A stretch of DNA of 64,000 nt, from assembly GCA_026770705.1 (NCBI GenBank), contig JANJGN010000008.1, positions 129,146,001-129,210,000 of the forward strand, read 5' to 3'. Source of the stretch: Isurus oxyrinchus (Eukaryota). The notes under the pieces were generated by a model that saw only the letters and a program-made list of their open reading frames with translations, was not told where the DNA came from and did not search any database. This document shows positions 8,731 to 44,262 of this stretch, one piece after another; position 1 is the stretch's first letter, and every line of letters starts with the position of its first letter. The translations under genes were made by a program, and so were the position numbers.

Positions 8731-10584
8731 ATGCAACCCCCATGAGTTGAGCTGAGCCCTGTTCAGGTCCTCCTTCACCCACAAACATATGAGCCAACCT
8801 TGGCTAATGCTTGTGCTGGCTGTTTGGCTGGTCCTCCCAGTCTCTGAGCCCTGGTATGGTGAGAGTGATTGAGACAGGGGGCCTGCAATTCTGGGGGTTG
8901 AATGGCTACACTCTGCTTGTTGGGTGGTGGTGGGGAGAGGCACAAGGTGGTAAGGATTAGGATTAGGATAATCTAGTTGCATTGTAGGGGAGCCCCCTAC
9001 TTAGCATTTTTTCAGGGAATTAGAGAAGCTTATGCACAATTTGAACAGTGCGCAGCGTCCTTTGTGCTGGCCAGCTGCACTGAAGTGAGCAAATCGCCTT
9101 GGCTTCCATTGAAGGCCTCAAGCCTCCATACCTAACAATACACAAGGCATTTGCCATCAAATTATTAGCCCATCGTGACCAGAAGGACTTTAACCCAGCC
9201 CAAAACCTTAAACTTAGACCAGGTACAGGCAACTCTCTACTTTCCTGAAAGCAAGTAAGAAATGCAGATGATTGGAAGAAAAAAATGCTGCACTGAAAGA
9301 GTGTGTGTATATTTATCAGGCAGTTCATTAAATGGAGCTGACTGTGATAATTTTTTGGTGATATATTATTTAATAATTTCAGTCAATGAATAAGTAATTA
9401 TGCTTTAGAAGACACAAATTAAAGAGCGTAGATCAGAGCCTTGGGAATGTGGCTGCATAGTTCATTGAAGGAGATAAATTGGGAATTGCAAGATTGTTTC
9501 CTTAGGGAGGCTGCACTATTTCTTAGATATTACAATTGCTGAAAGCGCCATCAGTTTTGCACAAGTGTACGCCATTTGTTTTAGGAAACCAAAGTTGATT
9601 TAGTGCTTTGATGCCTAATGTAATGTTTCAAAGCTTGCAACTTCTACTTAAAGCATTTGCTGAACAGCAAAGTGAGTGATTGGTGAAAAGCAAGCTTCAG
9701 AGGAACAGGGTTAAATGTTACGTCACCAGAGAATGCCAATGGGGTTGGACTTGGCCTGTGTGGTATTAGCATCAAATCAGGTGATGCATTTGTGTATGAT
9801 GAATGGTGACTCCTTTGTTAAAATAAAGCAGCCATATTATCATGTGAATGAATAATCACCCACAGTGTACGCTAAATAATTGTCTTTGTAAACAGTTCAA
9901 ATAAATTGCCCAAGGCCTTTAACCTTGCACCCATCACCAGCTCCCACCCTCGCCCCCATCACCCACAGGTAACTTCTGCCTTCTTCAGCTATGGGTGGCA
10001 ACTCACACTGAGGCTTAGTTCTACGGATGCCAGCACCTCTCCTGTGCCATGTTCAAATGTGAATACCGGAGGGCAGTTTGACTAAAAGCGCCTCACGGAT
10101 GAGCTCAGTGTTAACCATCCAAAGTCATCATGCTTGCCCATCTTCCAGGAATGCTTGTCAACAGTCAGCAGTGAGGCCAACTATAATGATCAAATTTCTG
10201 TTCTTGCTGAAATAAGTTACTGATTCAAAACCTTAAATCAAAGTGATAGTGTTGTATTTATGTAGCTTGAAGAGGGAAGCTCAGCCTGTAAGGGACAACT
10301 GACTCTGAGGGATAACTCTGTGGTAATTGTGTTTTTGTGATTTTGTAGTGGGGGAGTCGAGCTGCCTGCGTGGGCCTGAACACTGGACGTTGCTGTTGCC
10401 ATGGTGGTGATCAGTCGGGTCAGGTGCAGCCTCGCTGTAGCAGTGGGGGGGGGGGGCGTGGGGTGAGTGGACTTTCCTGCACCCCGGGTCCTCTAGGGAT
10501 TGGAGAGCTATTTCACAGTGCTCACAGGAGGCAGAGCCAGTGCCATGGGTGTGAAGCGAATGGGGTGGAGGTGAACTTTCAACA

Positions 10585-11289
10585 TAAAGGCAAAAAACTG
10601 TGGATGGTGGAAATCCAAAATAAAAACAAAAATACCTGGAAAAACTCAGCAGGTCTGGGCAGCATGTGCGAGAGGAACACAGTTAACATTTCGAGTCCGA
10701 CTGACCCATCGACAGAACTAAGTAAAAATAGAACAAAGGTGAAATATAAGCTGGTTTAAGGGTGGGTGGGACAAGTAGAGCTGGATAGAGGGCCAGTGAT
10801 AGGTGGAGATAACCAAAAGCAGTCACAGACAAAAGAACAATGAGGTGTTGAAGCTGGTGATATTATCTAAGGAATGTGCTAATTAAGGGTAGAAAGCAGG
10901 ACAAGCAAGGTACAAATAGACCTAGTGGGGGTGGGGTGGGGTGAAGGAATCGAAAAAGGCTAAAAGGTAGAGATAAAACAATGGATGGAAATATATTTAA
11001 AAATAATGGAAATAGGTGGGAGAAGAAAAATCTGTATAAATTATTGGCAAAAAAGGGGGCTATCGGAAAGGGGGAGGGAGGGGATGGAGGAGAGAGTTCA
11101 TGATCTAAAATTGTTGAACTCAATATTCAGTCCAGAAGGCTGTAAAGTGCCTAGTGGAGGATGAGGTGCTGTTCCTCCAGTTTGTGTTGAGCTTCACTGG
11201 AACAATGCAGCTGGCCAAGGACAGACATGTGGGCATGAGAGCAGGGTGGAGTGTTGAAATGGCAAGTGACAGGGAGGTCTGGGTAATGC
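10585..11289 (-). mobile_element. Older 5'-truncated PLE (family A-related): endonuclease C-terminus, 3' UTR, hammerhead, long tail
   Basis: 11095-11289 aligns with 13080-13280 (GLNIEFNNFRS end); terminal repeat 10585-10760 includes the tail extension. Confidence 0.9.
10681..10719 (-). ncRNA. Minimal hammerhead ribozyme motif
   Basis: agtt-CTGTCGA-t-gggtc-agtcg-gactc-GAAA-tgtt-aact. Confidence 0.6.
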
Positions 11290-11737
11290 ATTCGATTTTC
11301 CAAATAACATTCTTTTAACTTTAAATATTTGGCACCAGTGGATTAAAAAGTCACTGAACTGGATGCGTTCAGTGTGCTTTGTCCTGTTTTACAATTGTTT
11401 CAAAATATTTCGTGTTTTATTTCTGAAAAAAAAACTAAGGTGTTAAACTAAGACTTTAGCTCGCTATAGTTCTGTTGTAAGTGGAATTAAATATGTCACA
11501 TCATTATTTAAAGTGTTACGAACAGGGGAGTTGTGGAATAATTTCCCCTTTTTCTCACCTCTCGACTGACCACATCAGGACGTATTTTTGAGAAGGAGGG
11601 TGCTCTAATCCCTGGAGTGCTGTAAGTGCTGTAAGAAAAGGCACAAAACAGGCTTTCGTGTAAATTTAGATGAAAAGGGCAAACATTTACTGGCACAACA
11701 TACGGAATGTAATCGCAACAAACACCCACTCTTCATG

Positions 11738-11770
11738 CACACAACACACACACACACACACACACACACA
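11738..11770. repeat. (CA)n microsatellite
   Basis: Direct observation. Confidence 0.95.
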
Positions 11771-12650
11771 AATGTAAGAAAAGAAGATTGCAAAAAAAGA
11801 GATAGCAAGCACCCGAGAATTCACTTTTACTTTAGTCCTTCAATATAGTCATTGGAAGCGTTGCAGGCCTGAGAATTTTCGTTTTGGTTCTCTGAAGAAA
11901 ACCTAAGGTCGGAGGTTTCTGCTGATGAATTCACAATGGTTCACTTCAAGCAACCGCAAGTTTCTGGCTTTTCCCGTCAAAGTTGGTCAAGCCCATATAG
12001 TGAGAAGTTATAATCTTGCAGGTAAAACGAATTAGCCCTACCTCTCTCCCTGTGATGGATTTTCTGGGCAGGATCCTCTTTTTTGCTGGGTGAGATAGCT
12101 TCTCCCTGATCTTCAAGAATGACACATCTGGCCAGACTGAGAATTACACCTCTCTGAGGTATTTTTAACTATGAAAAATGGGTGGTAACAGATGAGTCTC
12201 CTGTTATGCACCTTGCCCGATCGGATCAGCTGCTGCTGCTGGTTTCAGACGATCGTCGATAGCTAAACTCATCCCCAGTGAATTTGGAATCTTGCCTGGT
12301 GTGAAATCGCAATCATAGATTACAGAGAACAAAATAGATTGGTACACTAACGTGGGGAGTGAAATTACTGATAACTCTTTCTTAAGGCTTTGGTGAACTT
12401 TTGAAGCTTTTTTTTTGCCGGAGTAATTAAATGACCAGGACGAGTTCAGTCATTGGACTATAAAATTGGATTATACAATAAATTACCAACTAATCTATCT
12501 GGTACTGTCTCCATTCAACTCATTGCAAATGTTGCAGTAACCACCCTCATTCTTTCTGTTGGTGAGAGAAGGCTGTCAGGAAGTACAAAACAAAAACAGA
12601 ATTACCTGGAAAAACTCAGCAGGTCTGGCAGCATCGGCGGAGAAGAAAAG

Positions 12651-12689
12651 AGTTGACGTTTCGAGTCTTCATGACCCTTCGACAGAACT
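12651..12689 (-). ncRNA. Minimal type I hammerhead ribozyme motif (PLE family A)
   Basis: agtt-CTGTCGA-a-gggtc-atgaa-gactc-GAAA-cGTC-aact; predicted cleavage between 12655 and 12654. Confidence 0.75.
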
Positions 12690-13085
12690 TGATTTCGAGT
12701 CCAGGAAAGAGTTGAAATATAAGTTGGTTTAAGGTGTGTGGGGGGGGGGGGGGGGGGGGCGCGGAGAGAGAGAGAGAGACAGAGGTGCTTGTGTAGACAA
12801 ACAAGCAGTGATAGAAGCAGATCATCAAAAGATGTCAGTGACAATGGGACAAAAGAACACATAGGTGTTAAAGTTAAAGTTGGTGATATTATCTAAACGA
12901 ATGTGCTAATTAAGAATGGATGGTAGGGCACTCAAGGTACAGCTCTAGTGGGGGTGGGGGGAGCATAAAAGATTTTAAAATATTTAAAAATAAGTGGGAA
13001 AAGAAAAATCTGTAAAATTTATAGGGAAAAAAAGGGGGGAAAAAAAGGGGGGAAACAGAAAGGGGGTGGGGATGGGGGAGGGAGC

Positions 13086-15835
13086 TCACGACCTAAAGTT
13101 ATTGAATTCAATATTCAGACCGGAAGGCTGTAAGGTGCCTAGTCGGAAGATGAGGTGTTGTTCCTCCAGTTTGCGTTGGGCTTCACTGGAACAATGCAGT
13201 AAGCCAAGGACAGACATGTGGGCAAGAGAGCAGGGTGGAGTGTTAAAATGGCAAGCGACAGGGAGGTTTGGGTCATTCTTGCGGACAGACCGCAGGTGTT
13301 CTGCAAAGCGGTCGCCCAGTTTACGTTTGGTCTCTCCAATGTAGAGGAGACCACATTGGGAGCAACGAATGCAGTAGACTAAGTTGGGGGAAATGCAAGT
13401 GAAATGCTGCTTCACTTGAAAGGAGTGTTTGGGCCCTTGGACGGTGAGGAGAGAGGAAGTGAAGGGGCAGGTGTTACATCTTTTGCGTGGGCATGGGGTG
13501 GTGCCATAGGAGGGGGTTGAGGAGTAGGGGGTGATGGAGGAGTGGACCAGGGTGTCCCGGAGGGAGCGATCCCTATGGAATGCCGATAAGGGGGGTGAAG
13601 GGAAGATGTGTTTGGTGGTGGCATCATGCTGGAGTTGGCGGAAATGGCGGAGGATGATCCTTTGAATGCGGAGGCTGGTGGGGTGATAAGTGAGGACAAG
13701 GGGGACCCTATCATGTTTCTGGGAGGGAGGAGAAGGCGTGAGGGCGGATGCGCGGGAGATGGGCCGGACACGGTTGAGGGCCCTGTCAACGACCGTGGGT
13801 GGAAAACCTCGGTTTAAGGAAGAAGGAGGACATGTCAGAGGAACCGTTTTTGAAGGTAGCATCATCGGAACAGATGCGACGAAGGCGAAGGAACTGGGAG
13901 AATGGGATGGAGTCCTTACAGGAAGCGGGGTGTGAGGAGCTGTAGTCGAGGTAGCTGTGGGAGTCGGTGGGTTTGTAATGGATATTAGTGGACAGTCTAT
14001 CACCAGAGATTGAGACAGAGAGGTCAAGGAAGGGAAGGGAAGTGTCAGAGATGGACCACGTGAAAATGATGGAGGGGTGGAGATTGGAAGCAAAATTAAT
14101 AAATTTTTCCAAGTCCCGACGAGAGCATGAAGCGGCACCGAAGTAATCATCGATGTACCGGAGAAAAAGTTGTGGAAGGGGGCCGGGGTAGGACTGCAAC
14201 AAGGAATGTTCCACATATCCCATAAAGAGACAGGCATAGCTGGGGCCCATGCGGGTACCCATAGCCACACCTTTTATTTGGAGAAAGTGAGAGGAGTTGA
14301 AGGAGAAATGCCAGACGGAGGAGAGTAGTGGTGGATGGGGATTGTTCGGGCCTCTGTTCGAGGAAGAAGCTAAGGGCCCTCAGACCATCCTGGTGGGGGA
14401 TGGAGGTGTAGAGGGATTGGACGTCCATGGTGAAGAGGAAGCGGTTGGAGCCAGGGGAACTGGAAATTGTTGATGTGACGTAAGGTGTCAGAGGAATCAC
14501 GGATGTAGGTGGGAAGGGGACTGGACAAGGGGAGAGAGAAGGAAGTCAAGATAACGAGAAATGAGTTCTGTGGGGCAGGAGCAAGCTGAGACGATCGGTC
14601 TACTGGGGCAGTTCTGTTTGTGGATTTTAGGTAGGAGATAGAAGCGGGCCGTCCGAGGTTGGGCGACTATCAGGTTGGAAGCTGTGGGAGGGAGATCCCC
14701 AGAGGAGATGAGGTCCGTGACAGTCCTGGAAACAATGGCTTGATGTTCAGTGGTGGGGTCATGGTCCAGGGAGAGGTAGGAGGAAGTGTCTGCGAGTTGA
14801 CGCTCAGCCTCCGCGAGGTAGAGGTCAGTGCGCCAGACAACAACAGCACCACCCTTGTCAGCGGGTTTGATGACAATGTCAGGGTTGGACCTGAGAGAAT
14901 GGAGTGCAGTAAGTTCAGAGAGAGACAGGTTAGAATGGGTGAGAGGAGCAGAGAAATTGAGACGACTAATGTCGCGCCGACAGTTCTCAATGAAAAGATC
15001 AAGAGAAGGTAAGAATCCAGAGGGAGGGGGTCCAGGTGGAGGGAGAATATTGGAGATGGGTTAAAAGGATCCGTTGAACTGGGAGAGGACTCCTGCCCAA
15101 AGAAGTGAGCCCGGAGACGAAGACGGCGAAAGAAGAGTTCAGTATCATGCCGAGCCCGAAATTCATTGAGGTGAGGGCGTAAGGGTATGAAACTAAGTCC
15201 TTTGCTGAGCACTGAACGTTCAGCATCGGAGAGGGGAAGGTCAGGGGGGTATAGTGAATACACGGCTGGGGCTGGGATTGGAAGATGGGGTGGGGACGGA
15301 GGGACAGGCTGGGGGTGGAGGGTCCTAGATGGGTGTTGGTGTCGATGAGTTGTTGGAGCTTGCGTTCCTTAGCAGTTGAGAGAAAGAGAAAAAGTTTCTT
15401 GTTGAGGCGTCGGATGAGCCGAAGGATAAAATGAAACTGGGGGCACGCGCAGCTTTGAAAAAGGGTACGGCGGTGCTGCTGGAGGGAGAGGTCGAGTGTG
15501 TGTTCATACGGCGGCGCATGGCACTGAGTGTGGTTTTCAGAATGTGACGGGGAACAGCAGTCTGAGAAACGTTTTATATGTCCCGGAGATACCGGTAATC
15601 CTGGGTGTGGGTTCGAAAGATGAGGGGGTGGAATTTCAGTTGAAATCCACGTGGGGTAAGTCGGAGACGGAGACAGTCACTGAGAAAGGAGATATGGCTG
15701 TGAAAGCGGGTTTTAGTAAACACCTTGTCAAACACTAGGAGGGAAATGGAAAGCAAAGAAGGTGAACAAGGGCAACAGAGAGATACGGAAATCTTGTCGC
15801 AGAGAGGAACAGAACTTCTTCAAGGAGGTAGGCAT
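13086..15835 (-). pseudogene. PLE RT/GIY-YIG ORF, copy 1 (frameshifted as assembled)
   Basis: Starts ATG CCT ACC TCC TTG AAG AAG at 15835; YIDD, GTRMGPSYA and YIGET motifs are spread over several frames; many +1/+2 indels in homopolymer/dinucleotide runs and a 23-nt deletion near 14309. Confidence 0.9.
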
Positions 15836-15837
15836 TT

Positions 15838-15925
15838 CTTGAAGAGCAGTGGCAGTCAATTAAACACAGAGATAAAAACAAAGAGAACTGCGGATGCTGG
15901 AAATGCAAAACAAAAACAGAATTAC
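15838..15925 (-). other. Predicted 88-nt GT-AG intron in the PLE 5' UTR
   Basis: Donor CAG|GTAATT at 15925, branch-like TTGAC about 18 nt from the 3' end, acceptor CTCTTCAAG| at 15838, then AA-ATG of the ORF. Confidence 0.7.
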
Positions 15926-15970
15926 CTGGAAAAACTCAGCAGGTCTGGCAGCATCGGCGGAGAAGAAAAG

Positions 15971-16009
15971 AGTTGACGTTTCGAGTCTTCATGACCCTTC
16001 GACAGAACT
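15971..16009 (-). ncRNA. Minimal type I hammerhead ribozyme motif (PLE family A)
   Basis: Identical to 12651-12689. Confidence 0.75.
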
Positions 16010-16403
16010 TGATTTCGAGTCCAGGAAAGAGTTGAAATATAAGTTGGTTTAAGGTGTGTGGGGGGGGGGGGGCGCGGGAGAGAGAGAGAGAGACAGAGGT
16101 GCTTGTGTAGACAAACAAGCAGTGATAGAAGCAGATCATCAAAAGATGTCAGTGACAATGGGGACAAAAGAACACATAGGTGTTAAAGTTAAAGTTTGGT
16201 GATATTATCTAAACGAATGTGCTAATTAAGAATGGATGGTAGGGCACTCAAGGTACAGCTCTAGTGGGGGTGGGGGGAGCATAAAAGATTTTAAAATATT
16301 TAAAAATAAGTGGGAAAAGAAAAATCTGTAAAATTTATAGGGAAAAAAAGGGGGGAAAAAAAAGGGGGGGAAACAGAAAGGGGGTGGGGATGGGGGAGGG
16401 AGC

Positions 16404-18274
16404 TCACGACCTAAAGTTATTGAATTCAATATTCAGACCGGGAAGGCTGTAAGGTGCCTAGTCGGAAGATGAGGTGTTGTTCCTCCAGTTTGCGTTGGGC
16501 TTCACTGGAACAATGCAGTAAGCCAAGGACAGACATGTGGGCAAGAGAGCAGGGTGGGAGTGTTAAAATGGCAAGCGACAGGGAGGTTTGGGTCATTCTT
16601 GCGGACAGACCGCAGGTGTTCTGCAAAGCGGTCGCCCAGTTTACGTTTGGTCTCTCCAATGTAGAGGAGACCACATTGGGAGCAACGAATGCAGTAGACT
16701 AAGTTGGGGGAAATGCAAGTGAAATGCTGCTTCACTTGAAAGGAGTGTTTGGGCCCTTGGACGGTGAGGAGAGAGGAAGTGAAGGGGCAGGTGTTACATC
16801 TTTTGCGTGGGCATGGGGTGGTGCCATAGGAGGGGGTTGAGGAGTAGGGGGTGATGGAGGAGTGGACCAGGGTGTCCCGGAGGGAGCGATCCCTACGGAA
16901 TGCCGATAAGGGGGGTGAAGGGAAGATGTGTTTGGTGGTGGCATCATGCTGGAGTTGGCGGAAATGGCGGAGGATGATCCTTTGAATGCGGAGGCTGGTG
17001 GGGTGATAAGTGAGGACAAGGGGGACCCTATCATGTTTCTGGGAGGGAGGAGAAGGCGTGAGGGCGGATGCGCGGGAGATGGGCCGGACACGGTTGAGGG
17101 CCCTGTCAACGACCGTGGGTGGAAAACCTCGGTTAAGGAAGAAGGAGGACATGTCAGAGGAACCGTTTTTGAAGGTAGCATCATCGGAACAGATGCGACG
17201 AAGGCGAAGGAACTGGGAGAATGGGATGGAGTCCTTACAGGAAGCGGGGTGTGAGGAGCTGTAGTCGAGGTAGCTGTGGGAGTCGGTGGGTTTGTAATGG
17301 ATATTAGTGGACAGTCTATCACCAGAGATTGAGACAGAGAGGTCAAGGAAGGGAAGGGAAGTGTCAGAGATGGACCACGTGAAAATGATGGAGGGGTGGA
17401 GATTGGAAGCAAAATTAATAAATTTTTCCAAGTCCCGACGAGAGCATGAAGCGGCACCGAAGTAATCATCGATGTACCGGAGAAAAAGTTGTGGAAGGGG
17501 GCCGGGGTAGGACTGCAACAAGGAATGTTCCACATATCCCATAAAGAGACAGGCATAGCTGGGGCCCATGCGGGTACCCATAGCCACACCTTTTATTTGG
17601 AGAAAGTGAGAGGAGTTGAAGGAGAAATTGTTCAACGTGAGAACAAGTTCAGCCAGACGGAGGAGAGTAGTGGTGGATGGGGATTGTTCGGGCCTCTGTT
17701 CGAGGAAGAAGCTAAGGGCCCTCAGACCATCCTGGTGGGGGATGGAGGTGTAGAGGGATTGGACGTCCATGGTGAAGAGGAAGCGGTTGGAGCCAGGGAA
17801 CTGGAAATTGTTGATGTGACGTAAGGTGTCAGAGGAATCACGGATGTAGGTGGGAAGGGACTGGACAAGGGGAGAGAGAAGGAAGTCAAGATAACGAGAA
17901 ATGAGTTCTGTGGGGCAGGAGCAAGCTGAGACGATCGGTCTACCGGGGCAGTTCTGTTTGTGGATTTTAGGTAGGAGATAGAAGTGGGCCGTCCGAGGTT
18001 GGGCGACTATCAGGTTGGAAGCTGTGGGAGGGAGATTCCCAGAGGAGATGAGGTCCGTGACAGTCCTGGAAACAATGGCTTGATGTTCAGTGGTGGGGTC
18101 ATGGTCCAGGGAGAGGTAGGAGGAAGTGTCTGCGAGTTGACGCTCAGCCTCCGCGAGGTAGAGGTCAGTGCGCCAGACAACAACAGCACCACCCTTGTCA
18201 GCGGGTTTGATGACAATGTCAGGGTTGGACCTGAGAGAATGGAGTGCAGTAAGTTCAGAGAGAGACAGGTTAGA
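16404..18274 (-). pseudogene. PLE ORF, copy 2 (5'-truncated; RT domain open, endonuclease C-terminus frameshifted)
   Basis: ORF 16502-18442 contains IKPADKGG, KIHK, DVQSLYTSIP, YIDD, CPRKRCNTC and VYCIRC..C...YIGET. Confidence 0.9.
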
Positions 18275-18280
18275 CCCATC

Positions 18281-19494
18281 TCCGGCCCATCTCCCGCGCA
18301 TTCCGCCCTCACGCCTTCTCCTCCCTCCCAGAAACATGATAGGGTCCCCCTTGTCCTCACTTATCACCCCACCAGCCTCCGCATTCAAAGGATCATCCTC
18401 CGCCATTTCCGCCAACTCCAGCATGATGCCACCACCAAACACATCTTCCCTTCACCCCCCTTATCGGCATTCCGTAGGGATCGCTCCCTCCGGGACACCC
18501 TGGTCCACTCCTCCATCACCCCCTACTCCTCAACCCCCTCCTATGGCACCACCCCATGCCCACGCAAAAGATGTAACACCTGCCCCTTCACTTCCTCTCT
18601 CCTCACCGTCCAAGGGCCCAAACACTCCTTTCAAGTGAAGCAGCATTTCACTTGCATTTCCCCCAACTTAGTCTACTGCATTCGTTGCTCCCAATGTGGT
18701 CTCCTCTACATTGGAGAGACCAAACGTAAACTGGGCGACCGCTTTGCAGAACACCTGCGGTCTGTCCGCAAGAATGACCCAAACCTCCCTGTCGCTTGCC
18801 ATTTTAACACTCCACCCTGCTCTCTTGCCCACATGTCTGTCCTTGGCTTACTGCATTGTTCCAGTGAAGCCCAACGCAAACTGGAGGAACAACACCTCAT
18901 CTTCCGACTAGGCACCTTACAGCCTTCCGGTCTGAATATTGAATTCAATAACTTTAGGTCGTGAGCTCCCTCCCCCATCCCCACCCCCTTTCTGTTTCCC
19001 CCCTTTTTTTCCCCCCCTTTTTTTCCCTATAAATTTTACAGATTTTTCTTTTCCCACTTATTTTTAAATATTTTAAAATCTTTTATGCTCCCCCCACCCC
19101 CACTAGAGCTGTACCTTGAGTGCCCTACCATCCATTCTTAATTAGCACATTCGTTTAGATAATATCACCAACTTTAACTTTAACACCTATGTGTTCTTTT
19201 GTCCCATTGTCACTGACATCTTTTGATGATCTGCTTCTATCACTGCTTGTTTGTCTACACAAGCACCTCTGTCTCTCTCTCTCTCTCCGCGCCCCCCCCC
19301 CCCCCCCACACACCTTAAACCAACTTATATTTCAACTCTTTCCTGGACTCGAAATCAAGTTCTGTCGAAGGGTCATGAAGACTCGAAACGTCAACTCTTT
19401 TCTTCTCCGCCGATGCTGCCAGACCTGCTGAGTTTTTCCAGGTAATTCTGTTTTTGTTTTGCATTTCCAGCATCCGCAGTTCTCTTTGTTTTTA
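18281..19494 (+). mobile_element. Inverted 3' segment of PLE (linker, complete GIY-YIG, 3' UTR, hammerhead, long tail)
   Basis: Reverse complement of 15872-17088; frame open to GLNIEFNNFRS* at 18964. Confidence 0.95.
19358..19396 (+). ncRNA. Minimal type I hammerhead ribozyme motif (PLE family A)
   Basis: agtt-CTGTCGA-a-gggtc-atgaa-gactc-GAAA-cGTC-aact; predicted cleavage after C19392. Confidence 0.75.
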
Positions 19495-20089
19495 TGTCAG
19501 GAAGTACAGACTTCACCAGAGATTCTGCACCCACCTCACCAACCAGCACTGGGTTTCGACAGAGCACAACGTGCTGCTCTGCACTCCTGATTACTTTAAT
19601 CAGCTAAGTAGTGTTTGGTCCACATTAACAGGGTGAGCAGTAAACTGTTGAAATACAAAATGTATAATTCACATGTATGGCACAAATCTTCCGGTCTCCA
19701 TACTTTCTAAATTGGAAGTTAATTTGGGATAATTATGTCAGGAGCCCGCGAAAGTCCTCACACACACACATGCACTGAATTGTCCAGGACTTTTTAACTT
19801 CCAAAGGGCATTTCTGTTGCTCGGGGCCGCCTGAAAAAGTCTGACACTGAGCTCAGTGTCAAAGACTTGGGCCAGATACACGGGATATACCTGAATACTT
19901 ACCCAGAAATAGCATCTTGGATTACACCTTGTCTAATTCAGAGATTAGCTCGCATAATTGAACAGAGCACCACAACCAACACCCCACCCCGCTATGAGCC
20001 ACCCTGACCTAACCCAACCCAACCCAAAACAAAAACAGAATTACCTGGAAAAACTCAGCAGGTCTGGCAGCATCGGCGGAGAAGAAAAG

Positions 20090-20128
20090 AGTTGACGTTT
20101 CGAGTCCTCATGACCCTTCGACAGAACT
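20090..20128 (-). ncRNA. Minimal type I hammerhead ribozyme motif (PLE family A)
   Basis: Same as the other copies; the single change (atgag vs atgaa) falls in loop II. Confidence 0.75.
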
Positions 20129-20514
20129 TGATTTCGAGTCCAAGAAAGAGTTGAAATATAAGCTGGTTTTAAGGTGTGTGTGTGGGGGGGCGGAGAGAGA
20201 GAGAGAGACAGAGGTGCTTGTGTAGACAAACACGCAGTGATAGAAGCAGATCATCAAAAGATGTCAGCGACAATGGTACAAAAGAACACATAGGTGTTAA
20301 AGTTAAAGTTGGTGATATTATCTAAATGAATGTGCTAATTAAGAATGGATGGTAGGGCACTCAAGGTACAGCTCTAGTGGGGGTGGGGGGGAGCATAAAA
20401 GATTTTAAAATATTTAAAAATAAGTGGGAAAAGAAAAATCTGTAAAATTTATAGGGAAAAAAAGGGGGGAAAAAGGGGGGAAACAGAAAGGGGGTGGGGG
20501 ATGGGGGAGGGAGC

Positions 20515-23270
20515 TCACGACCTAAAGTTATTGAATTCAATATTCAGACCGGAAGGCTGTAAGGTGCCTAGTTGGAAGATGAGGTGTTGTTCCTCCAGTT
20601 TGCGTTGGGCTTCACTGGAACAATGCAGTAAGCCAAGGACAGACATGTGGGCAAGAGAGCAGGGGTGGAGTGTTAAAATGGCAAGCGACAGGGAGGTTTG
20701 GGTCATTCTTGCGGACAGACCGCAGGTGTTCTGCAAAGCGGTCGCCCAGTTTACGTTTGGTCTCTCCAATGTAGAGGAGACCACATTGGGAGCAACGAAT
20801 GCAGTAGACTAAGTTGGGGGAAATGCAAGTGAAATGCTGCTTCACTTGAAAGGAGTGTTTGGGCCCTTGGACGGTGAGGAGAGAGGAAGTGAAGGGGCAG
20901 GTGTTACATCTTTTGCGTGGGCATGGGGTGGTGCCATAGGAGGGGGTTGAGGAGTAGGGGGTGATGGAGGAGTGGACCAGGGTGTCCCGGAGGGAGCGAT
21001 CCCTATGGAATGCCGATAAGGGGGGTGAAGGAAAGATGTGTTTGGTGGTGGCATCATGCTGGAGTTGGCGGAAATGGCGGAGGATGATCCTTTGAATGCG
21101 GAGGCTGGTGGGGTGATAAGTGAGGACAAGGGGGACCCTATCATGTTTCTGGGAGGGAGGAGAAGGCGTGAGGGCGGATGCGCGGGAGATGGGCCGGACA
21201 CGGTTGAGGGCCCTGTCAACGACCGTGGGTGGAAAACCTCGGTTAAGGAAGAAGGAGGACATGTCAGAGGAACCGTTTTTGAAGGTAGCATCATTGGAAC
21301 AGATGCGACGAAGGCGAAGGAACTGGGAGAATGGGATGGAGTCCTTACAGGAAGCGGGGTGTGAGGAGCTGTAGTCAAGGTAGCTGTGGGAGTCGGTGGG
21401 TTTGTAATGGATATTGGTGGACAGTCTATCACCAGAGATTGAGACAGAGAGGTCAAGGAAGGGAAGGGAAGTGTCAGAGATGGACCACGTGAAAATGATG
21501 GAGGGGTGGAGATTGGAAGCAAAATTAATAAATTTTTCCAAGTCCCGACGAGAGCATGAAGCAGCACCGAAGTAATCATCGATGTACCGGAGAAAAAGTT
21601 GTGGAAGGGGGCCGGGGTAGGACTGCAACAAGGAATGTTCCACATATCCCATAAAGAGACAGGCATAGCTGGGGCCCATGCGGGTACCCATAGCCACACC
21701 TTTTATTTGGAGAAAGTGAGAGGAGTTGAAGGAGAAATTATTCAGTGAAAGAACAAGTTCAGCCAGACGGACGAGAGTAGTGGTGGATGGGGATTGTTCG
21801 GGCCTCTGTTCGAGGAAGAAGTGGAGAGCCATCATATCATCCCGGTGGGGGATGGAGGTGTAGAGGGATTGGACGTCCATGGTGAAGAGGAAGCGGTTGG
21901 AGCCAGGGAACTGGAAATTGTTGATGTGACGTAAGGTGTCAGAGGAATCATGGATGTAGGTGGGAAGGGACTGGACAAGGGGAGAGAGAAGGGAGTCAAG
22001 ATAACGAGAAATGAGTTCTGTGGGGCAGGAGCAAGCTGAGACGATCGGTCTACCGGGGCAGTTCTGTTTGTGGATTTTGGGTAGGAGATAGAAGCGGGCC
22101 GTCCGAGGTTGGGCGACTATCAGGTTGGAAGCTGTGGGAGGGTGATCCCCAGAGGAGATGAGGTCAGTGACAGTCCTGGAAACAATGGCTTGATGTTCAG
22201 TGGTGGGGTCATGGTCCAGAGAGAGGTAGGAGGAAGTGTCTGCGAGTTGACGCTCAGCCTCCGCGAGGTAGAGGTCAGTGCGCCAGACAACAACAGCACC
22301 ACCCTTGTCAGTGGGTTTGATGACAATGTCAGGGTTGGACCTGAGAGAATGGAGTGCAGTAAGTTCAGAGAGAGACAGGTTAGAATGGGTGAGAGGAGCA
22401 GAGAAATTGAGACGACTAATGTCGCGCCGACAGTTCTCAATGAAAAGATCAAGAGAAGGTAAGAATCCAGAGGGAGGGGTCCAGGTGGAGGGAGAATATT
22501 GGAGATGGGTAAAAGGATCCGTTGAACTGGGAGAGGACTCCTGCCCAAAGAAGTGAGCCCGGAGACGAAGACGGCGAAAGAAGAGTTCAGTATCATGCCG
22601 AGCCCGAAATTCATTGAGGTGAGGGCGTAAGGGTATGAAACTAAGTCCTTTGCTGAGCACTGAACGTTCAGCATCGGAGAGGGGAAGGTCAGGGGGTATA
22701 GTGAATACAAGGCTGGGGCTGGGATTGGAAGATGGGGTGGGGACGGAGGGACAGGCTGGGGTGGAGGGTCCTAGATGGGTGTTGGTGTCGATGAGTTGTT
22801 GGAGCTTGCGTTCCTTAGCAGTTGAGAGAAAGAGAAAAAGTTTCTTGTTGAGGCGTCGGATGAGCCGAAGGATAAAATGAAACTGGGGGCACGCGCAGCT
22901 TTGAAAAAGGGTACGGCGGTGCTGCTGGAGGGAGAGGTCGAGTGTGTTCATACGGCGGCGCATGGCACTGAGTGTGGATTTCAGAATGTGACGGGAACAG
23001 CAGTCTGAGAAACGTTTTATGTCCCGGAGATACCGGTAATCCTGGGTGGGTTCGAAAGATGAGGGGTGGAATTTCAGTTGAAATCCACGTGGGGTAAGTC
23101 GGAGACGGAGGCAGTCACTGAGAAAGGAGATATGGCTGTGAAAGCGGGTTTTAGTAAACACCTTGTCAAACACTAGGAGGGAAATGGAAAGCAAAGAAGG
23201 TGAACAAGGCAACAGAGAGATACGGAAATCTTGTCGCAGAGAGGAACAGAACTTCTTCAAGGAGGTAGGC
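20515..23270 (-). CDS. PLE polyprotein: reverse transcriptase + Cys-rich linker + GIY-YIG endonuclease (Neptune-type); ~918 aa if ATG and one frameshift are restored
   Basis: 882-aa ORF 20612-23260 with IKPTDKGG, KIHK, GRPIVS, DVQSLYTSIP, GVAMGTRMGPSYA, YIDD, FLDL, CPRKRCNTC, VYCIRCSQCGLLYIGET and HFN; an extra G in the run near 20662-20665 shifts the last ~48 codons (ends GLNIEFNNFRS). Confidence 0.9.
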
Positions 23271-23739
23271 CAACTCTTTCTCCCACTATCAACCCGCAGA
23301 CCCGACCCGACTCTCTCCAGCCGCCACCACTACCTCGCGACCTGACCCAATTGCTCACCCATCCACTCACTCAACCACCATCTCCCAATCACTCACTCAC
23401 TCACCCACCCCCTCACTAATTCATTCACTCACTCAGTCACCCGCTCACCCACCCACTCATGCGCTAACCCACTGAAAGACTTACCTGAATACAACAGCTA
23501 ATGTTTTAAAATGGGGGTGTGTCCTCTCTTCGCCTGTCTTCTCCTGTGCTTGTCGGTCTTCCACAGGGATAGCTGCGCTGACCCATTGCTGCTGTAGTTA
23601 GGATCAGAAGTCCTGGCTGAAATAACATAAAATGTTCAGGGCACAGAAATCTTTATGGGCAGCAAGAATGCACCCAGCATCAGTGCTGATCAGAACATCT
23701 TGGCCTATAACTTATTCTCATATATAAATACATACATAT

Positions 23740-24235
23740 AGTGTCAGCTATAGCTCAGTTGATATCACTATTGCATCCGACTCAGAGATTGGGAGTTGAA
23801 GTCCCACTCCAGAGACTTGAGCATAAAAATCTAGGATGGCACTCCAGTGCAATAATGCAATGTCAGATGAGACATTTAACTGAGGCTCTGTCTTCCCTCA
23901 GAGGTAAAAGATCCCATTACACTAGTTTGAAGAAGATGTCTTGTGGATACTATTTCCAGTCTGTTAGTTGTAATGGACATATCACCAATTTCCCAATAGG
24001 TACAGCCAGCAAGTGAGGCTCTATACCACCACTGACGGACATCAGTATCCCTCAATCAATATCACATAATCGTTACCTCATTGCTGTTTGTGAGAGCTTT
24101 CTACGTGCAAAACGGCTGCCTTGTTTTCGACATTACAACAGAAACTTCACTTCAAAACTACTTTGTTGGTTCTAAAATATTTTGGGATTTCCTGAAGTCA
24201 TGAAAGATGTTATAACAATATAAGTCTTTTCTTTC
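23740..24235 (+). mobile_element. tRNA-derived SINE (Deu-domain/SacSINE1-like) with internal insertion
   Basis: tagctcagttg A-box-like and gttgaagtccc B-box-like head, central aaagatccc block, tail ending aagtctttt. Confidence 0.65.
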
Positions 24236-24367
24236 ATTCCTGAGGGATAATCCAAAATCTGAGCCTTTGAATGCTCAAATAAATAACTAACCAAATTATC
24301 CAAAAAATTGTTGAAATATAAATTTTGATACAAACTACATAAACCCTATGTATATACATATACATAA

Positions 24368-24778
24368 AGGGGTGATGGTGGCATAGTCGTAATGTAACTG
24401 AACTAGCACTCCAGAGGTTGAAGCTAACACTCTTGGGATATGAGTTCAAATCCTACCATGGTAGCTGGTGGAATTTGATTTCAGTTAATAAAATATGGAA
24501 TAAAAAGCTAATCTCAGTAATGGTGACCATGAAGCTATTATTGATTGTTGTAAAAAAAAACTATCTGGTTCACTACTGCCCTTTAGGGAAGGAAATCTGC
24601 CATCTTTACCTGGTCAAGCTTACATGTGACTCCAGATCCACAGCAATGTGGTTGACTCTTAACTACCCTCTGAAATGGCCTCACAAGCTACTCAGTTCTG
24701 GGCAATTAGGGATGGGTAACAAATGCTGGCCTTGCCAGTGACACTCACATCCCATGAAAGAATAAATAAAAAAAAAAC
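24368..24778 (+). mobile_element. tRNA-derived SINE with LINE-derived 3' tail
   Basis: A box tggcatagtcg, B box gagttcaaatcc, 3' end cacatcccatgaaagaataaa(A)n shared with the LINE at 44700-45350. Confidence 0.8.
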
Positions 24779-28403: not shown

Positions 28404-29425
28404 GACCAAATCTTCCAGTCTCTGAATTGTCGGAGAGTGGGCATACAACCTAAGATGGCAGTCAGGACCCCACGGAAGTTCCGACATGTTGACCTCCGTG
28501 GGAATTGGCTCAGAATTTGGAACTTCCAATCAGCAACTCAGAGTCAGAGACTTCGTACAGTTCTGTCAAACTTACTGGGGGTGTTACCCAGGAAAAGTTA
28601 AATCAATTAAAAGCTATTCTAACTCCAAGGTAACTACAGAACTGACCCTCTAATCATTCACACTGAACCTCCCCCCCACCCTCCCCCCGCTACCCCCCAC
28701 ATCTGACCTTACCCAACTCGACAACAAGGAGCAGAACTACCCCCCACCAACCAACTACTCCCAACCCATCCAACAACACCCCAACCCACCTACCCTCTCA
28801 CCCACACACCAACCTGCCACTTCACATGCCTGCCATCCAACCCACCTACCACCTCACCCACCAGCCACCCCACCCACCTACAACCCTACCCACCTATCAT
28901 GCATCCACCTACAACCCTACCCCCCTATCAGGCTTCCATCTAATACCTCATCCACCTGCTAACCTACCCACTTACCGCTTCACCCATCTGCCATCCTACC
29001 CATCTGCCACCCTATGCTACACATCTCCACCCTACCCACCTACCACCTCACTCACCTGCTACCCTACCACCTCACACACCTACAACCCTATCCACCTGTC
29101 ACCATACCCACTTACCTCATCCGCCTACCTACCCTACCAACCTACCCATTCACTCATTCATCCACTCATCCATTCACTCATTCATTGACATGCACATTGG
29201 ACCTTTAAACCTACCTTATGGCAGCTAATGCTGCAAAAAGGGGGCGGGTCCCATCTTCCCCCTGATGCTACAGCGCTGAGGTGGAGTTCTCTGAGGGATG
29301 CTATGCTGTGCATAGAAACCAGGCTCAGAAGACCCAGCAAGAAATGCATGGCAGCACCGAGATGCGGAAAAGTTTGAGCGGAGCAGCAATCTGATGATGA
29401 TTGCCACTTATGGAAGATCTAGGCT
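28404..29425. mobile_element. Non-autonomous Harbinger-like TIR element with C-rich low-complexity core
   Basis: TIRs gaccaaatcttcca / tggaagatctaggct, aat/aat flanks; splits a PLE end remnant (28335-28400 joins 29426-29460). Confidence 0.6.
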
Positions 29426-32399: not shown

Positions 32400-35300
32400 T
32401 CAGCCACAGCATACCCAAAAGTACAGCTGCATAGCAAGGTGAGAATGGCTCATGGCCATCAAGATCATTATAGTCCTCAAAGTTCATGCCAGCAGAATCT
32501 CTGGGAGACAGCAGGCAACGTTTCCAATATTTGACAGCTCACCGTGAATTACAGCATCTGGGAGGGGATAATCTTCTCTATGACTAGAGAGGTTGAGGAG
32601 GAGTAATCACATGACTTTGCAAGGGTAGCAGGATTCCCAATAGTACAGATCAATTGCACTCATGTGGCTCTGCAGGCCCCACATATACATGGAAAGATGT
32701 ACTGTGACCGTAAGGGCTACCATTCCCTGGATGTTCATTTGATGTGTGACCATGCAGAGAATCATGTCAGTGAATACGTTAATGCTAAAAGGTTAGTCAA
32801 GGAAAAAGTGGAACCTATCAGAGATGAAGATGGAAACTTGTGTATAGATGCAGAGGCTGTGGGAAGGGTTTTGAATGAATATTTTATCTCTGTGTTTACA
32901 AAGGAAAGGGAGGATGTAGATATAGTAGTTCAGGAGGAACACAGCGAGATATTGGATGGGATAGTCATAAAGAGAAAGTACTCAAAGAGTTGAAATCCGT
33001 GAAAGTTGATAAGTCACCAGGGCCAGATGGATTGTTTCCAAGGCTGCTGAAGGAAGTCAGGGAGGAGATAGCACATCTGAGGATGATTTTCCAATCTTCA
33101 CTAGATACAGAGGAGATACCAGAGGACTGGAGAAATGCAAACGAAGTTCCATTGTTTAAAAAGGGATCAAAGGAAATGCCAAACAATTATAAGCCAGTTA
33201 GTCTTAAATCGATGGTGAGCAAATTAGTAGAATCAGCCCTGAGAGATAGGATTAACAGTCATGTGGAAAGGCATGGACTAGTCAAGGATGGTCAGCATGG
33301 ATTTGTTAAAGGAAGGTCTCCCTCACAAATTTGATTGAATTCTTTGAAGAAATGACAAGAAGGGTTGATAAAGGTACTGCAGTGGATGTTGTGTACATGG
33401 AATTTAGCAAGGCATTTGACAAGGTCCCACATGGCAGATTGGTCAGGAAAGTAAAAGCCAATGGGATTCAGGTTAATGTGGCAAACTGGATAAAAGGCTG
33501 ACTTTGTAACAGGAAACAAAGGGTAATGGTTGATGGATGCCCTTGCAAAAGGTGTTCCACAGGACTCGGTGTTGGGACCCTTGCTGTTTGTGTTATATTA
33601 TATATTAACGATTTGGACGTGAACGTGGGGGGCATGATTGGGAAATTTGCAGATGACACAAAGATTGGCCGAGTAGTGGATAGTGTAGAGGATAGCCATA
33701 ATCTTCAAACAATATAGATGGGTTGGTGGAGTGGGCGCTGAAGTGGCAGATGGATTTTAACATAGAGAAGTGTGAGGTCATACATTTAGAGAGGTCAGAA
33801 GGTTACAGGGATTACACAACAAATGGGAATATACTAAGAGGGGTAGATAAAGTGAGAGATCTTGGCATACAAGTACACAGGTCCATGAAGGCAGCAGTTC
33901 AAGTAGACAAGATTGTAAAGAAGACATATGAAATGCTCTCCTTCATCGGCAGAGATATAAAATATAAAAGTAAGGATATAATGTTGGAATTGTATAAAAC
34001 ACTGGTGAGGCCACAACTGGATTATTATGTGCAGTTCTGGTCACCACATTACAGGAAGGATGTAATAGCTCTGGAGAGAGTGCAGAGGAGGTTTACAAGA
34101 ATGTTGCCAGGGTTAGAAAAGTGTAGCTATGAGGAGAGATTGGATAGGTTGGGGTTATTTTCCTTAGAACAAAGAAGGCTGAGAGGTGACTTGATTGAGC
34201 TGTACAAAATTATAAGGGAAATAGAGTAGACAGGATAAAATTGTTTCCCTTGGTAGAGAGTTCTAGATCCGGGGACATAGATTCAAGATAAGTGGCAGGA
34301 TGTGTTGAGGGGACATGAGGAAGAATTTATTTATGCAGAGGGTAATGGGTGTCTGGAATACGCTGCCCAAGTTGGTGGTAGAGGCAGAAACTCTAAACTC
34401 TTTTAAAAAGTACCTGGATCAGCACCTTAAGTGCTGTAAGCTGCAGGACAATGAGTCAGGTGCAGGAAGGTGGGATTAGAAAGGTCACCTAGGTGTCCTC
34501 GGGCTGGCATGGACAAGATGGGCTGAATGGCCTTCTTCTCTGTGCTGTAACCTTTCTATGGTTCTGTGGTTCTAATACCCATTATCCTGGCAGCAGACAC
34601 AATGTATTCAACTTTTGCTAGTTAGGCAAACCCGGAATCTTCAGGCTACCAGAGGCTGGCTCCTTGGTGATAAGGGCTTCTTGCTTTATACCCGCTCATA
34701 CTCATTCTATACCTGGCACATGACTCTCATCCACCACCTAACAATGTTTGAACAGTGTGCCTACCGTGAGCACCATGATACAATTGGGAATGCAAGAAGC
34801 ACTTCATCAGCACCCTCAAACAATGGCCACATTACCTGGACAGCTTGTGGGGGGTTCCTTCAGCTCTCACCAGAGGATGTCTCCAATTTTGTGGTGGTCT
34901 GCTGCATCCTCTACAATGTTGCTCTCAGGAAAGCCAACCAGACATTCCGATGGCACTTTGAGAGGAGTAGGATGAAGAGAAGGAGGAGGGAGAGAAGGCA
35001 CCTGAGCTGTCTTCTCTCAGATGGGCTGTCTGTGGCAGTTTGGTTCCTCTGAAATGACATACCCATATCACCAAATCTCTGCAATTTCCTACCTTTCCAC
35101 TCCTCTGATACGGACAATCACAGAGTCTTCTTTGCCAAAACCCTGAAATAAAAAAAAGCACAAGAAAATCATTCCATAACAATATTATTGAACGACACGT
35201 CCAATAATACATGCAAGATCTTTTGTCTTGGGTGTGCCATGGCTTGTCCTAGTGTTCCTATATAGTGCTACCTTAGTGGCTGCAACGTGGCTGATGGAAG

Positions 35301-41791: not shown

Positions 41792-44262
41792 GGGCGGAAT
41801 CTTATGTCCTCTCTCATGGTGTGTTTTAAAGCAGGAAGGACAATTAATCAAGCAGAGGATGGTGGGTGAGGACCCCACTACCTTCCTGCTTCCAGCCTGA
41901 TTAAGTCCATAGTGGGAAGTCCCACAGAGGGCCTTCCCACCTGCCTTAATGAATACCCACTCAAGGGCCTCATCTCCTGCTGCAAGTATTAATCCAGCAG
42001 TGGGTGGGCCCGTCCCTATGTGGGAAGCACAATAAGCAAACCTGTATGGTTGCTTGTGGTCTCCTGGGCAGGATTCCTTGTTCAAAGGCATGCAGTGACA
42101 GGCTGAGGGACCTGGCATTGAGAAGAGGGTGGCACTGAGAACCAGCTCCCTGCCCTTGCTGCTGACTGGTCCACACCTCCCCCCACCCCCCCCAGCCCCA
42201 CAATGCCTACCCAATGAAACCTCTCTCTCCATTATTTCACAGAATCACAGAACTGTTACGGTGTAGAATGAGGCCGTTTGGCCCATTGTGTCTGCACTGG
42301 CTTTCCAAACATTTTAACTTAGTACCAAATTCCTGCTTTTTCCCTGTAACCATTAATATTGTTTCTATTTATATAATCATCCAATGCCCTATTGAATGCC
42401 TCAGTTGAACCTGCCTCGACCACAGTTCCAGGCAGTGCTTTCCAAACCCTAACTACTCGCTGCGTGAAAAAGTTTTTTTCTCACTTTGCAATTGCTTCTT
42501 TTGCAAAACGCTTTAAAATTGTGCCCTTTGGTTCTCGATCCGTTTACTAGCAGAAACAGTTTCTCCCAATCTACTCTGTGCAGATTTTGAAAACTTCTTT
42601 CAAGTATCCTCTCAGCTTTCTCCTCTCCAAGGAAACAGTCCCAACCTCTCTAATCTTTGCTCATAACTGAAGTGTCTCATCCCTGGAACCATTCTCATAA
42701 ACCTATTCTGCACTGTCTCCAATGCGTTCACATCCTTCCTACAGTGTGGTGCCCAGAACTGTACACAGTACTCCAACTGAGGCCTAATCAGTGTCTCATA
42801 TAAGTTCATCTTAACCTCCCTTCTCTTGTACTCTATGCCCCTATTAATGAAGCTTAGAGTGCTGTATGCTTTAGAAACAGCTCTCTCTACCTGTTCTGCC
42901 ACCTTTAATGACTTATGTACATATACATCGAGGCCTCTTGACTCCTGCACACCCTTTAGAATGGTATCCTTTATTTTATACTGTCTTTCCATGTTCTTTG
43001 TACCAAAGTGCATCACCTCACACTTTTCCGCATTGAACTTCAACAGCCACCCATCTGCTCACTCCACCAATGTGTGTCGATGTCCTTTTGAAGTTCTACA
43101 CTGTCCTCCTCACAGTCGACAATTCTCCCAAGTTTTGTATCATCCACAAACTTTGAAATTGTCCCCTGCACACCAAGATCTAGATCATTTATATATATCA
43201 GGAAGAGCAAGGGTCCCATTACTGGGCCCTGGGGAACTCCACTACAAACATTCTTCCAGCCCAAAAAATACTTATTAACCATTACTCTCTGTTTCCTATC
43301 CCTCAGCCAATTTTGTATCCACATTGCTACTGCACCTTTTATTCCATGACTTATAACTTTTCTCACAAGTCTGTTGTGGGCACTATATCAAACACCTTTT
43401 GGAAGTCCATATAAACCACATCAATGGCCTTGCCCTCAGCAACCACCTCTGTTACCTCTTCAAAAAACTCTTAACAAATTAGTTAGACACGATTTTCCTT
43501 TAACAAATCTATGCTGACTCTTCCAAATCAATCCACATTTTTTTATGTGACTATTAATTCTACCCCGAATAATTGCTTCAAGAAGTTTCCCTACCACTGA
43601 AGTTAATCTGACTGATCTGTAATTGCACAGCAGACCTTTACAGCCTTTTTTGAACAAGAGTGTAATGTTTGCAATTCTCCAGTCTTCCGGCACCTCCCCA
43701 GAATCCAGGGAACATTGAAAGATTATTGGCAGTGTCCCTGCAATTTCCATGCTCACTTCCCTCAATATTCTTGGATGCATCTCATCCGGTCCCGATGCCT
43801 TATCAACTTTAAGTACTGACAGCTTATCCAATACCTCCTCCTTATCAATTTTAAGCCATCTAGTGACTGAGTTTCCTACTTTGCCACCATGGCCTGGATA
43901 GCATCTGCCTCCTAGGTAAAGACAGATGCAAAACATTCACTTAATGCTTCAGCCATGCCTCTTGCCTCTACGGGTCTCTCCTCCATCTTGGGCCTCCATT
44001 GGATATTGTTCGGTTGCAGCCACCAGATTCATGGTGATGCAGCTGAGCAAAAGTGCTGCCCACCTCTGATTGGCCAGCAGATCTCAGTAGGCAGGACTTC
44101 CTGCCCCTGGGGTCCTGATCTTGCAGAAGGCCTATCACTGGCCTCTCAAGTGCCTGTTTGGCTTGTGAGTCGGTGGGCCTTCCCCAAAGGAGTCATCACA
44201 GGTCCCTTGTTGGGTCTCCAGCCAGCAGACGAGGCACCCGTCGCATCCACAAAATTCTGCCC
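41792..44262. mobile_element. Harbinger-type MITE interrupted by a CR1
   Basis: TIRs gggcggaatcttatg / cacaaaattctgccc, ttt/ttt flanks. Confidence 0.7.
42238..43953 (-). mobile_element. CR1 LINE, 5'-truncated ORF2 pseudogene
   Basis: ORFs 43460-43936, 43040-43366 and 42612-43043 with KASGPD, SGVPQG, KFVDDTK and FNAEKCEVMHFG. Confidence 0.95.

Follow-up and report, generated by a model that had tools for sequence, protein, structure and literature searches.

Analysis of a 64-kb window of Isurus oxyrinchus DNA (the whole stretch analysed, to which all positions refer) identified an 88-nt segment, lying between a putative ribozyme and the start codon of a Neptune-type Penelope-like retroelement (PLE), which is tentatively read, with a rough probability of 0.45, as a weak and mostly retained spliceosomal 5′-UTR intron. 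The element belongs to a young vertebrate family of high copy number and, with its two ends falling within the 88-nt candidate, would offer a compact test case for intron retention. The segment is regarded here as a real and well-positioned candidate for a weak intron, retained in an otherwise ordinary PLE of Neptune type; if there is no splicing, the finding reduces to an ordinary PLE tail.

The retroelement and its copies

The minus strand between 12586 and 23270 carries several copies, 95–99% identical, of one 3.3-kb retroelement, and the window as a whole holds both tandem and inverted copies of this Neptune-type PLE. Partial tandem and inverted copies, a pLTR, a tail and a TSD, as expected of PLEs, were present, the inverted truncated copy being located at 18281–19498. 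The single ORF combines an RT with a C-terminal GIY-YIG domain (RVT_1 above the cut-off; GIY-YIG just under it with an E-value of 8e-4, its motifs being aligned), and the cysteines C783, C788 and C791 of the linker between RT and endonuclease were invariant in all 15 aligned rows. On these sequence features the element is an endonuclease-bearing PLE. The CX2-5CXXC type of linker is common to Neptune, Nematis and Naiad, and it was comparison by eye with published alignments, together with the linker cysteines, that placed the element as Neptune-type. As far as the available part of PMC8557442 extends, the element resembles the Neptune clade (DreriNep1, Neptune-1_Ac) in both its CX2-5CXXC linker and its C-terminal GIY-YIG domain, and, of the named rows in Figs S1 and S2 of that source, DreriNep1 comes closest by eye to its RT motif 3–4 region.

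Several extra bases of the frameshifted 13086–15835 ORF were absent from presumed-RNA contigs, so the frameshifts would be either copy-specific or assembly errors. Copy A has its 5′ end (23270, minus strand) at the G of its start ATG, which is 4 nt past the candidate acceptor, and no clear TSD was seen around this copy (20025–23270). A perfect donor consensus is located at 23479–23487 (minus strand), approximately 210 nt upstream of copy A and in the same orientation, and a crude host-exon scan returned no recognisable host gene. Also present in the window were RT-like fragments, which we take to be of the CR1 LINE type, together with a C/A-rich tandem array with a 16-nt period, at 33750–34229 (plus strand), 43460–43936 (minus strand) and 28757–29132.

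Table 1. Positions in the window of the insertion, the separate copy and the leader features.
Feature	Position	Strand	Remarks
Whole insertion	12586..19498	.	tandem copies plus inverted 5′-truncated copy; 14-bp TSD on both flanks
PLE ORF	13086..15835	-	N-terminal domain, RT, CX4CXXC linker, GIY-YIG; several frameshifts in the 15835 copy
Separate copy A	20025..23270	-	open frame of 885 codons starting at PTSLKK; short terminus
Putative minimal type I hammerhead motif	15971..16009	-	read from sequence; predicted cut between 15975 and 15974
uORF MLPDLLSFSR*	15922..15954	-	uATG at 15954; TAA at 15924-15922 within the donor; 10 codons
Donor-like CAG/GTAATT	15920..15928	-	8/9 consensus; T at +5; GT begins at 15925
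Candidate 88-nt 5′-UTR intron	15838..15925	-	splice-like signals in sequence; no joint in contigs
Short terminus (equivalent position)	15906..15908	-	copies ending at 12586, 20025 and 2506; TSD; loose contig ends (X19, X3)
PLE tail between the two termini	15872..15906	-	long end (15872-15873) from copy at 19498 plus TSD, and copies at 10.6 kb and 2.77 kb
Branch-point-like adenines	15856..15860	-	TTAAT and TTGAC; distance of their A to the acceptor 23 and 19 nt (15860/15856)
Acceptor-like AAG	15838..15840	-	first AG following 50 nt with none; ATG begins 2 nt later; consistent with the junction in protein P0001

Layout of the 5′ leader

The putative hammerhead matches in layout the features given in the available part of PMC4209133, with the exception of a U in place of the usual A at core position 6, a substitution recorded in all seven young copies aligned (15999–16005, and sister copies at 2.6 kb and 10.7 kb). 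Its stem II (5 bp) is predicted in four of four aligned copies, with one two-sided change, and an Rfam search of 10000–24500 yielded no match. Folding of 15826–16030 proved no better than that of shuffles (z 1.03) and gives no ground for proposing a stable leader structure; the donor is able to pair locally.

A first-pass annotation of the same DNA had proposed an 88-nt intron bounded by a CAG/GTAATT donor at 15925 and an acceptor at 15838, with a branch-like TTGAC between them and AA-ATG directly following, and each of these components was confirmed on the minus strand. The same was true of the upstream ATG that opens MLPDLLSFSR, with its stop inside the donor, and of the prediction that splicing would convert this reading frame into an out-of-frame overlapping uORF. 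In the unspliced RNA, the uORF stop precedes the main start by 87 nt; in a spliced RNA, the overlapping uORF would extend to 43 codons in the 15835 copy or to 45 in the body of copy A. The context of the uATG is weak, with C at both −3 and +4.

The main AA-ATG at 15835 gives a product beginning MPTSLKKFCSS, which had been put forward as the real start and was borne out as such: judged by the N-termini of relatives (21 of 150 examined), the MPTSLKK ATG is the true start, relatives beginning at the same place with MPTLK (P0002) or within a few residues of it (P0008 and P0079). The product of an invertebrate-type locus (L074) begins MPSLKEF.

Chance expectation and conservation of the splice-like signals

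When checked for the features of a U2-type spliceosomal intron, namely a GT donor, a branch-point A, a pyrimidine tract, an AG acceptor and a length above the minimum, the candidate was found to possess all five, its weak points being the T at +5 of the donor and the AAG at the acceptor. The latter is a minor acceptor type; no AG occurs for 50 nt ahead of it. The donor motif taken alone is ordinary, as the window contains 63 matches to the consensus with one mismatch against an expected 62.8. Nonetheless, this particular donor is the best U1 match within 16410–15700 and falls in the top 3.2% of 6820 GT sites. When the stretch from ribozyme to ATG was shuffled 5000 times with dinucleotides preserved, 0.66% of the shuffles produced a donor of equal quality, 11.6% an acceptor in such a position, and only 2 of 5000 both, a figure to be read as an upper bound on surprise since the shuffle criteria were chosen after the site had been seen. 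The intron-like signals exceed those of shuffled sequence, and the first-pass identification of the element as a PLE with a ribozyme, here still putative, was supported.

The GT is retained in seven of the eight window copies, comprising all four main-family and all three sister-subfamily ends, and is absent from one old copy; T occupies +5 in each of the seven GT-bearing copies, and an acceptor is visible in one of the eight. The 26-nt block in which the subfamilies do not vary is mostly on the upstream side of the donor, and the donor can pair locally, so that another constraint may explain the conservation.

Element termini within the candidate intron

The 14-bp TSD that flanks 12586–19498 sets the short end of the element at approximately 15906–15908 and the long end at approximately 15872–15873, thereby confirming the earlier placing of both ends (~15907 and ~15872) inside the 88 nt, at distances of 72 and 37 nt before the ATG. 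An inverted pair of the sister subfamily (2506–2771), with a similar TSD, has two ends identical to those of the main family. In X19, a sequencing run of DNA size, loose contig ends heap at 15906/15907 (69 and 115 contigs among the rows listed), and also at 15886. The long end falls short of both the acceptor and the branch-like adenines, which are therefore present only at pLTR–ORF junctions, and the complete candidate intron is found at one of the eight pLTR ends in the window.

The tail motif, of the form CAG..CA..C.CAGTT, resembles the tails of invertebrate-type relatives (15873–15906 compared with L074 and L078) and is a candidate for a protein-binding or RT-start signal. By analogy with the PAc element of Anolis, the two termini themselves may represent RT start sites.

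Relatives and a horn-shark gene model

A protein search by the N-terminal region found no full-length near relatives and no short ones; one of 39 candidates was a longer protein relative, and the only close protein retrieved with the N-terminal query was a horn-shark model with 86% identity. In this NCBI-predicted model (XP_067869940.1, Heterodontus francisci), unrelated sequence ending in FAAG leads directly into MPTLKKFCSS, at a junction where an unspliced element would read LQEM or LQGM. The Gly before the Met fits a phase-1 splice into AG/GA-ATG from a host exon ending in one base, insofar as the predicted model is correct, and a later segment of the same model is zinc-finger-like.

The invertebrate-type family represented by loci L074 and L093, which shares 43% amino acid identity and occurs as host-like DNA within a bacterial bin (G001), has a ribozyme-to-ATG distance of 138 nt, compared with 143 nt in the shark, and termini 78 and 46 nt before the ATG, compared with 72 and 37 nt. 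A GT donor matching at six of nine positions follows just after its ribozyme, and an AAG is located 3 nt before the ATG; two overlapping copies were combined to obtain this layout, in which the pyrimidine tract is poor. The coral-like acceptor contains only 53% pyrimidines. Among the distant families with a visible ribozyme-to-ATG stretch, one of three fits, L077 being weak and L089 having no AG within 48 nt. The L075/L078 family, for which 30 of 49 matches were examined, exhibits two termini and a weak GT (L078, ΔG −4.5), and none of the copies inspected ran into the ORF start. Loci L079–L083, L086, L087 and L068 had no usable ribozyme-to-ATG junction.

The bacterial bin in question (L073–L079, L085, L091 and L092–L128) contains much animal-like DNA, which is bin contamination, with several PLE families, one of them represented by 49 matches. 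At four loci of distant PLE relatives (L080:1–540, L081:1–440, L086:120–610 and L087:560–1100), a separate upstream frame containing GDSN...DSYPG, presumably an SGNH esterase-type domain, directly precedes the RT ORF. A metagenome scan with a gapped donor–acceptor pattern selected 67 loci, none of which was related by blastn, and these were rejected as chance matches. The pLTR motif gave four matches with bacterial titles in genome contigs, none of them matched by N-terminal tblastn; viral contigs yielded neither the pLTR motif nor PLE relatives.

Search for splice joints in assembled contigs

Four of 23 listed runs, from four studies, were examined as assembled contigs only, three of them being guessed to be RNA and the fourth (X19) DNA-sized; the test covered part of approximately 62,000 records, so that its counts are at-least figures, and some joints in X19 were uncounted. 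The joint 15837/15926 was found in none of the four runs, and hence in none of the three presumed-RNA runs, in a test where assembled contigs drop rare forms, RNA status is guessed and sense is not distinguished. A missing joint does not, for these reasons, refute splicing, although it does argue against the spliced form being dominant in the sampled runs. No intron-less junction was present among the contigs examined from X19.

Unspliced contigs bridging the acceptor, with at least 31 letters on each side, were recovered from two of the three presumed-RNA runs (X1, 15800–15882; X3, 15771–15881 and 15793–15882), and a contig of X5 crosses the acceptor with 21 letters on the intron side before departing. 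Conservation of the donor is divided: the GT holds in seven of the eight window copies, but at least seven X1 contigs part from the reference right at the donor, and the majority sequence of their mixed consensus (agreement 0.59) is non-GT, with no GT start in the sense direction. These contigs may derive from sister families with no donor, or from a donor spliced into host exons. An A-to-G variant at 15837, giving the GA-ATG that the splice suggested by the Heterodontus model would require, was recorded in at least 18 X19 contigs, five X3 contigs and one X1 contig. Depth ratios across the acceptor were set aside because contig depth cannot rank parts, as was an X1 back-joint from 15936 to 15826 (depth 3), regarded as a rearranged copy or an artefact.

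Precedents, proposed mechanism and alternatives

The comparisons that follow draw on the available parts of the sources cited. The layout is of a known kind, as 5′-UTR introns have already been described in Drosophila Penelope and in Chlamys-3, in the latter of which the intron spans the repeat boundary. Penelope of Drosophila virilis has a 75-bp retained 5′-UTR intron upstream of its ribozyme (PMC2377424, PMC4209133); most of its transcripts are without the intron, which is needed for production of a reporter protein (PMC2377424). The shark candidate is similar in being short and in the 5′ UTR, close to a hammerhead that is putative in the shark element and minimal in form; in the fly, RNAs with and without the intron are known to coexist (PMC2377424, PMC4209133). 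It differs in that the fly intron runs up to the ribozyme from the 5′ side whereas the shark candidate is downstream of it and holds the termini, and in that D. virilis Penelope belongs to the Penelope/Poseidon clade and the shark element is Neptune-type. In Chlamys-3_cRei of Chlamydomonas reinhardtii, a 398-nt intron spanning the pLTR boundary was demonstrated by Iso-Seq (Craig et al. 2021; PMC8557442). Unlike the shark element, Chlamys-3_cRei is a member of a clade with an N-terminal endonuclease, most Chlamys elements being without a hammerhead, and the available part of PMC8557442 draws no link between its layout and RT start sites or a uORF. The same authors call the cause of intron retention unknown, and predict more PLEs with introns upstream of the ORF (PMC8557442).

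The closest parallel for the termini is PAc, a Poseidon element of Anolis carolinensis, which likewise has two fixed genomic ends 30–40 nt apart, constituting the tail, and whose hammerhead is nearby, as is the putative one of the shark element (PMC11167929). The PAc ends were shown to be RT start sites; unlike the shark ends, 37–72 nt before the ATG, they are located inside the ORF, one of them at 111–118 nt, and no intron is described for PAc in the available part of PMC11167929. No description of a 5′-UTR intron in a vertebrate Neptune, or of a uORF switch, was found in the available parts of PMC8557442, PMC4209133, PMC11167929, PMC2377424, PMC3846280, PMC12602865 and bioRxiv 10.64898/2026.07.22.740005, although Arkhipova 2003/2006 or Repbase entries may already note a Neptune intron; the killifish Neptune paper, as far as available, makes no mention of an intron, splicing, a pLTR or a hammerhead.

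New copies end at two fixed points within the 88 nt, which on the favoured reading would be a weak intron that is mostly left in. Both ends would, by analogy with PAc, be RT start sites; a spliced junction would be without either of them, only unspliced RNA could be copied into DNA, and the intron could not be lost. With reverse transcription starting inside the intron, retention would be forced, which could explain why PLEs keep introns. A tandem transcript could be spliced at its 5′ junction and still prime from its 3′ junction, so that forced retention would hold strictly only for unit-length or circular templates, of the kind proposed for ribozyme-cut RNA in the available part of PMC4209133.

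As regards translation, it is known from the scanning model that a short upstream uORF permits re-initiation and that an overlapping out-of-frame uORF lowers initiation. The unspliced RNA may thus be translated by leaky scanning or by re-initiation after the short uORF, while splicing would remove a transcript from the transposition pool and probably damp its translation instead of giving rise to the mRNA. Because a spliced transcript would carry a uORF that runs out of frame into the main ORF, splicing is a doubtful route to mRNA; the weak uATG context may blunt both effects. The fullest version of this proposal, in which both RT start sites lie inside a 5′-UTR intron throughout this Neptune lineage, from marine invertebrates to sharks, retention is a mechanical necessity, and splicing serves as an off-switch by removing the priming sites and turning a harmless uORF into a repressive overlapping one, is considered unlikely; if true, the off-switch would give a direct answer to why PLEs keep introns.

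The strongest alternative, held to be plausible while falling short of probable, is that there is no intron, the U-rich stretch being PLE tail and RT-start region and the GT and AG arising incidentally from a conserved RNA element and the start context, serving at most as cryptic sites for host transcripts. In its favour are the joint missing from all four runs and the unspliced bridging contigs; the X1 divergence at the donor, the +5 T in seven of seven copies, the AAG and the fit of only one distant family in three (the other two being without clear sites) also count against an intron. The same explanation is favoured by a donor motif that is common in the window, by conservation centred upstream of the donor, and by a tail motif common to invertebrate families in which the donor is weak (L078). 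It is opposed by the shuffle result and by the ordered signals, including an AG-free gap with a branch-like A at −19 or −23, as well as by the junction of the Heterodontus model and the precedents in two other PLE clades; these, with the TSD-fixed termini, the L074/L093 layout and the lack of an intron-less junction among the X19 contigs examined, count for an intron.

The first-pass annotation had gone further in proposing that splicing separates the mRNA from an unspliced transposition template, a model that would have the intron removed efficiently in expressing tissue. D. virilis, with its mostly spliced transcripts and intron-dependent reporter (PMC2377424), lends this some substance, and the overlapping uORF may be bypassed owing to its weak uATG context; the runs, for their part, may be from the wrong tissue, contain DNA or have lost the junction in assembly. 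However, an abundant spliced form should leave a branch at the acceptor, through which contigs of X1, X3 and X5 run, and splicing creates the overlapping out-of-frame uORF. With the junction absent from all four runs as well, this division of roles is not supported so far and is regarded as improbable.

Solo ends bearing the donor and full junctions bearing the acceptor could also feed host exonisation, at which the Heterodontus model hints. The tail itself contains two more AGs that resemble acceptors and have good pyrimidine tracts, at 15897 and 15888 (minus strand); they are too near the donor for the 88-nt intron, and are possible cryptic acceptors for host transcripts.
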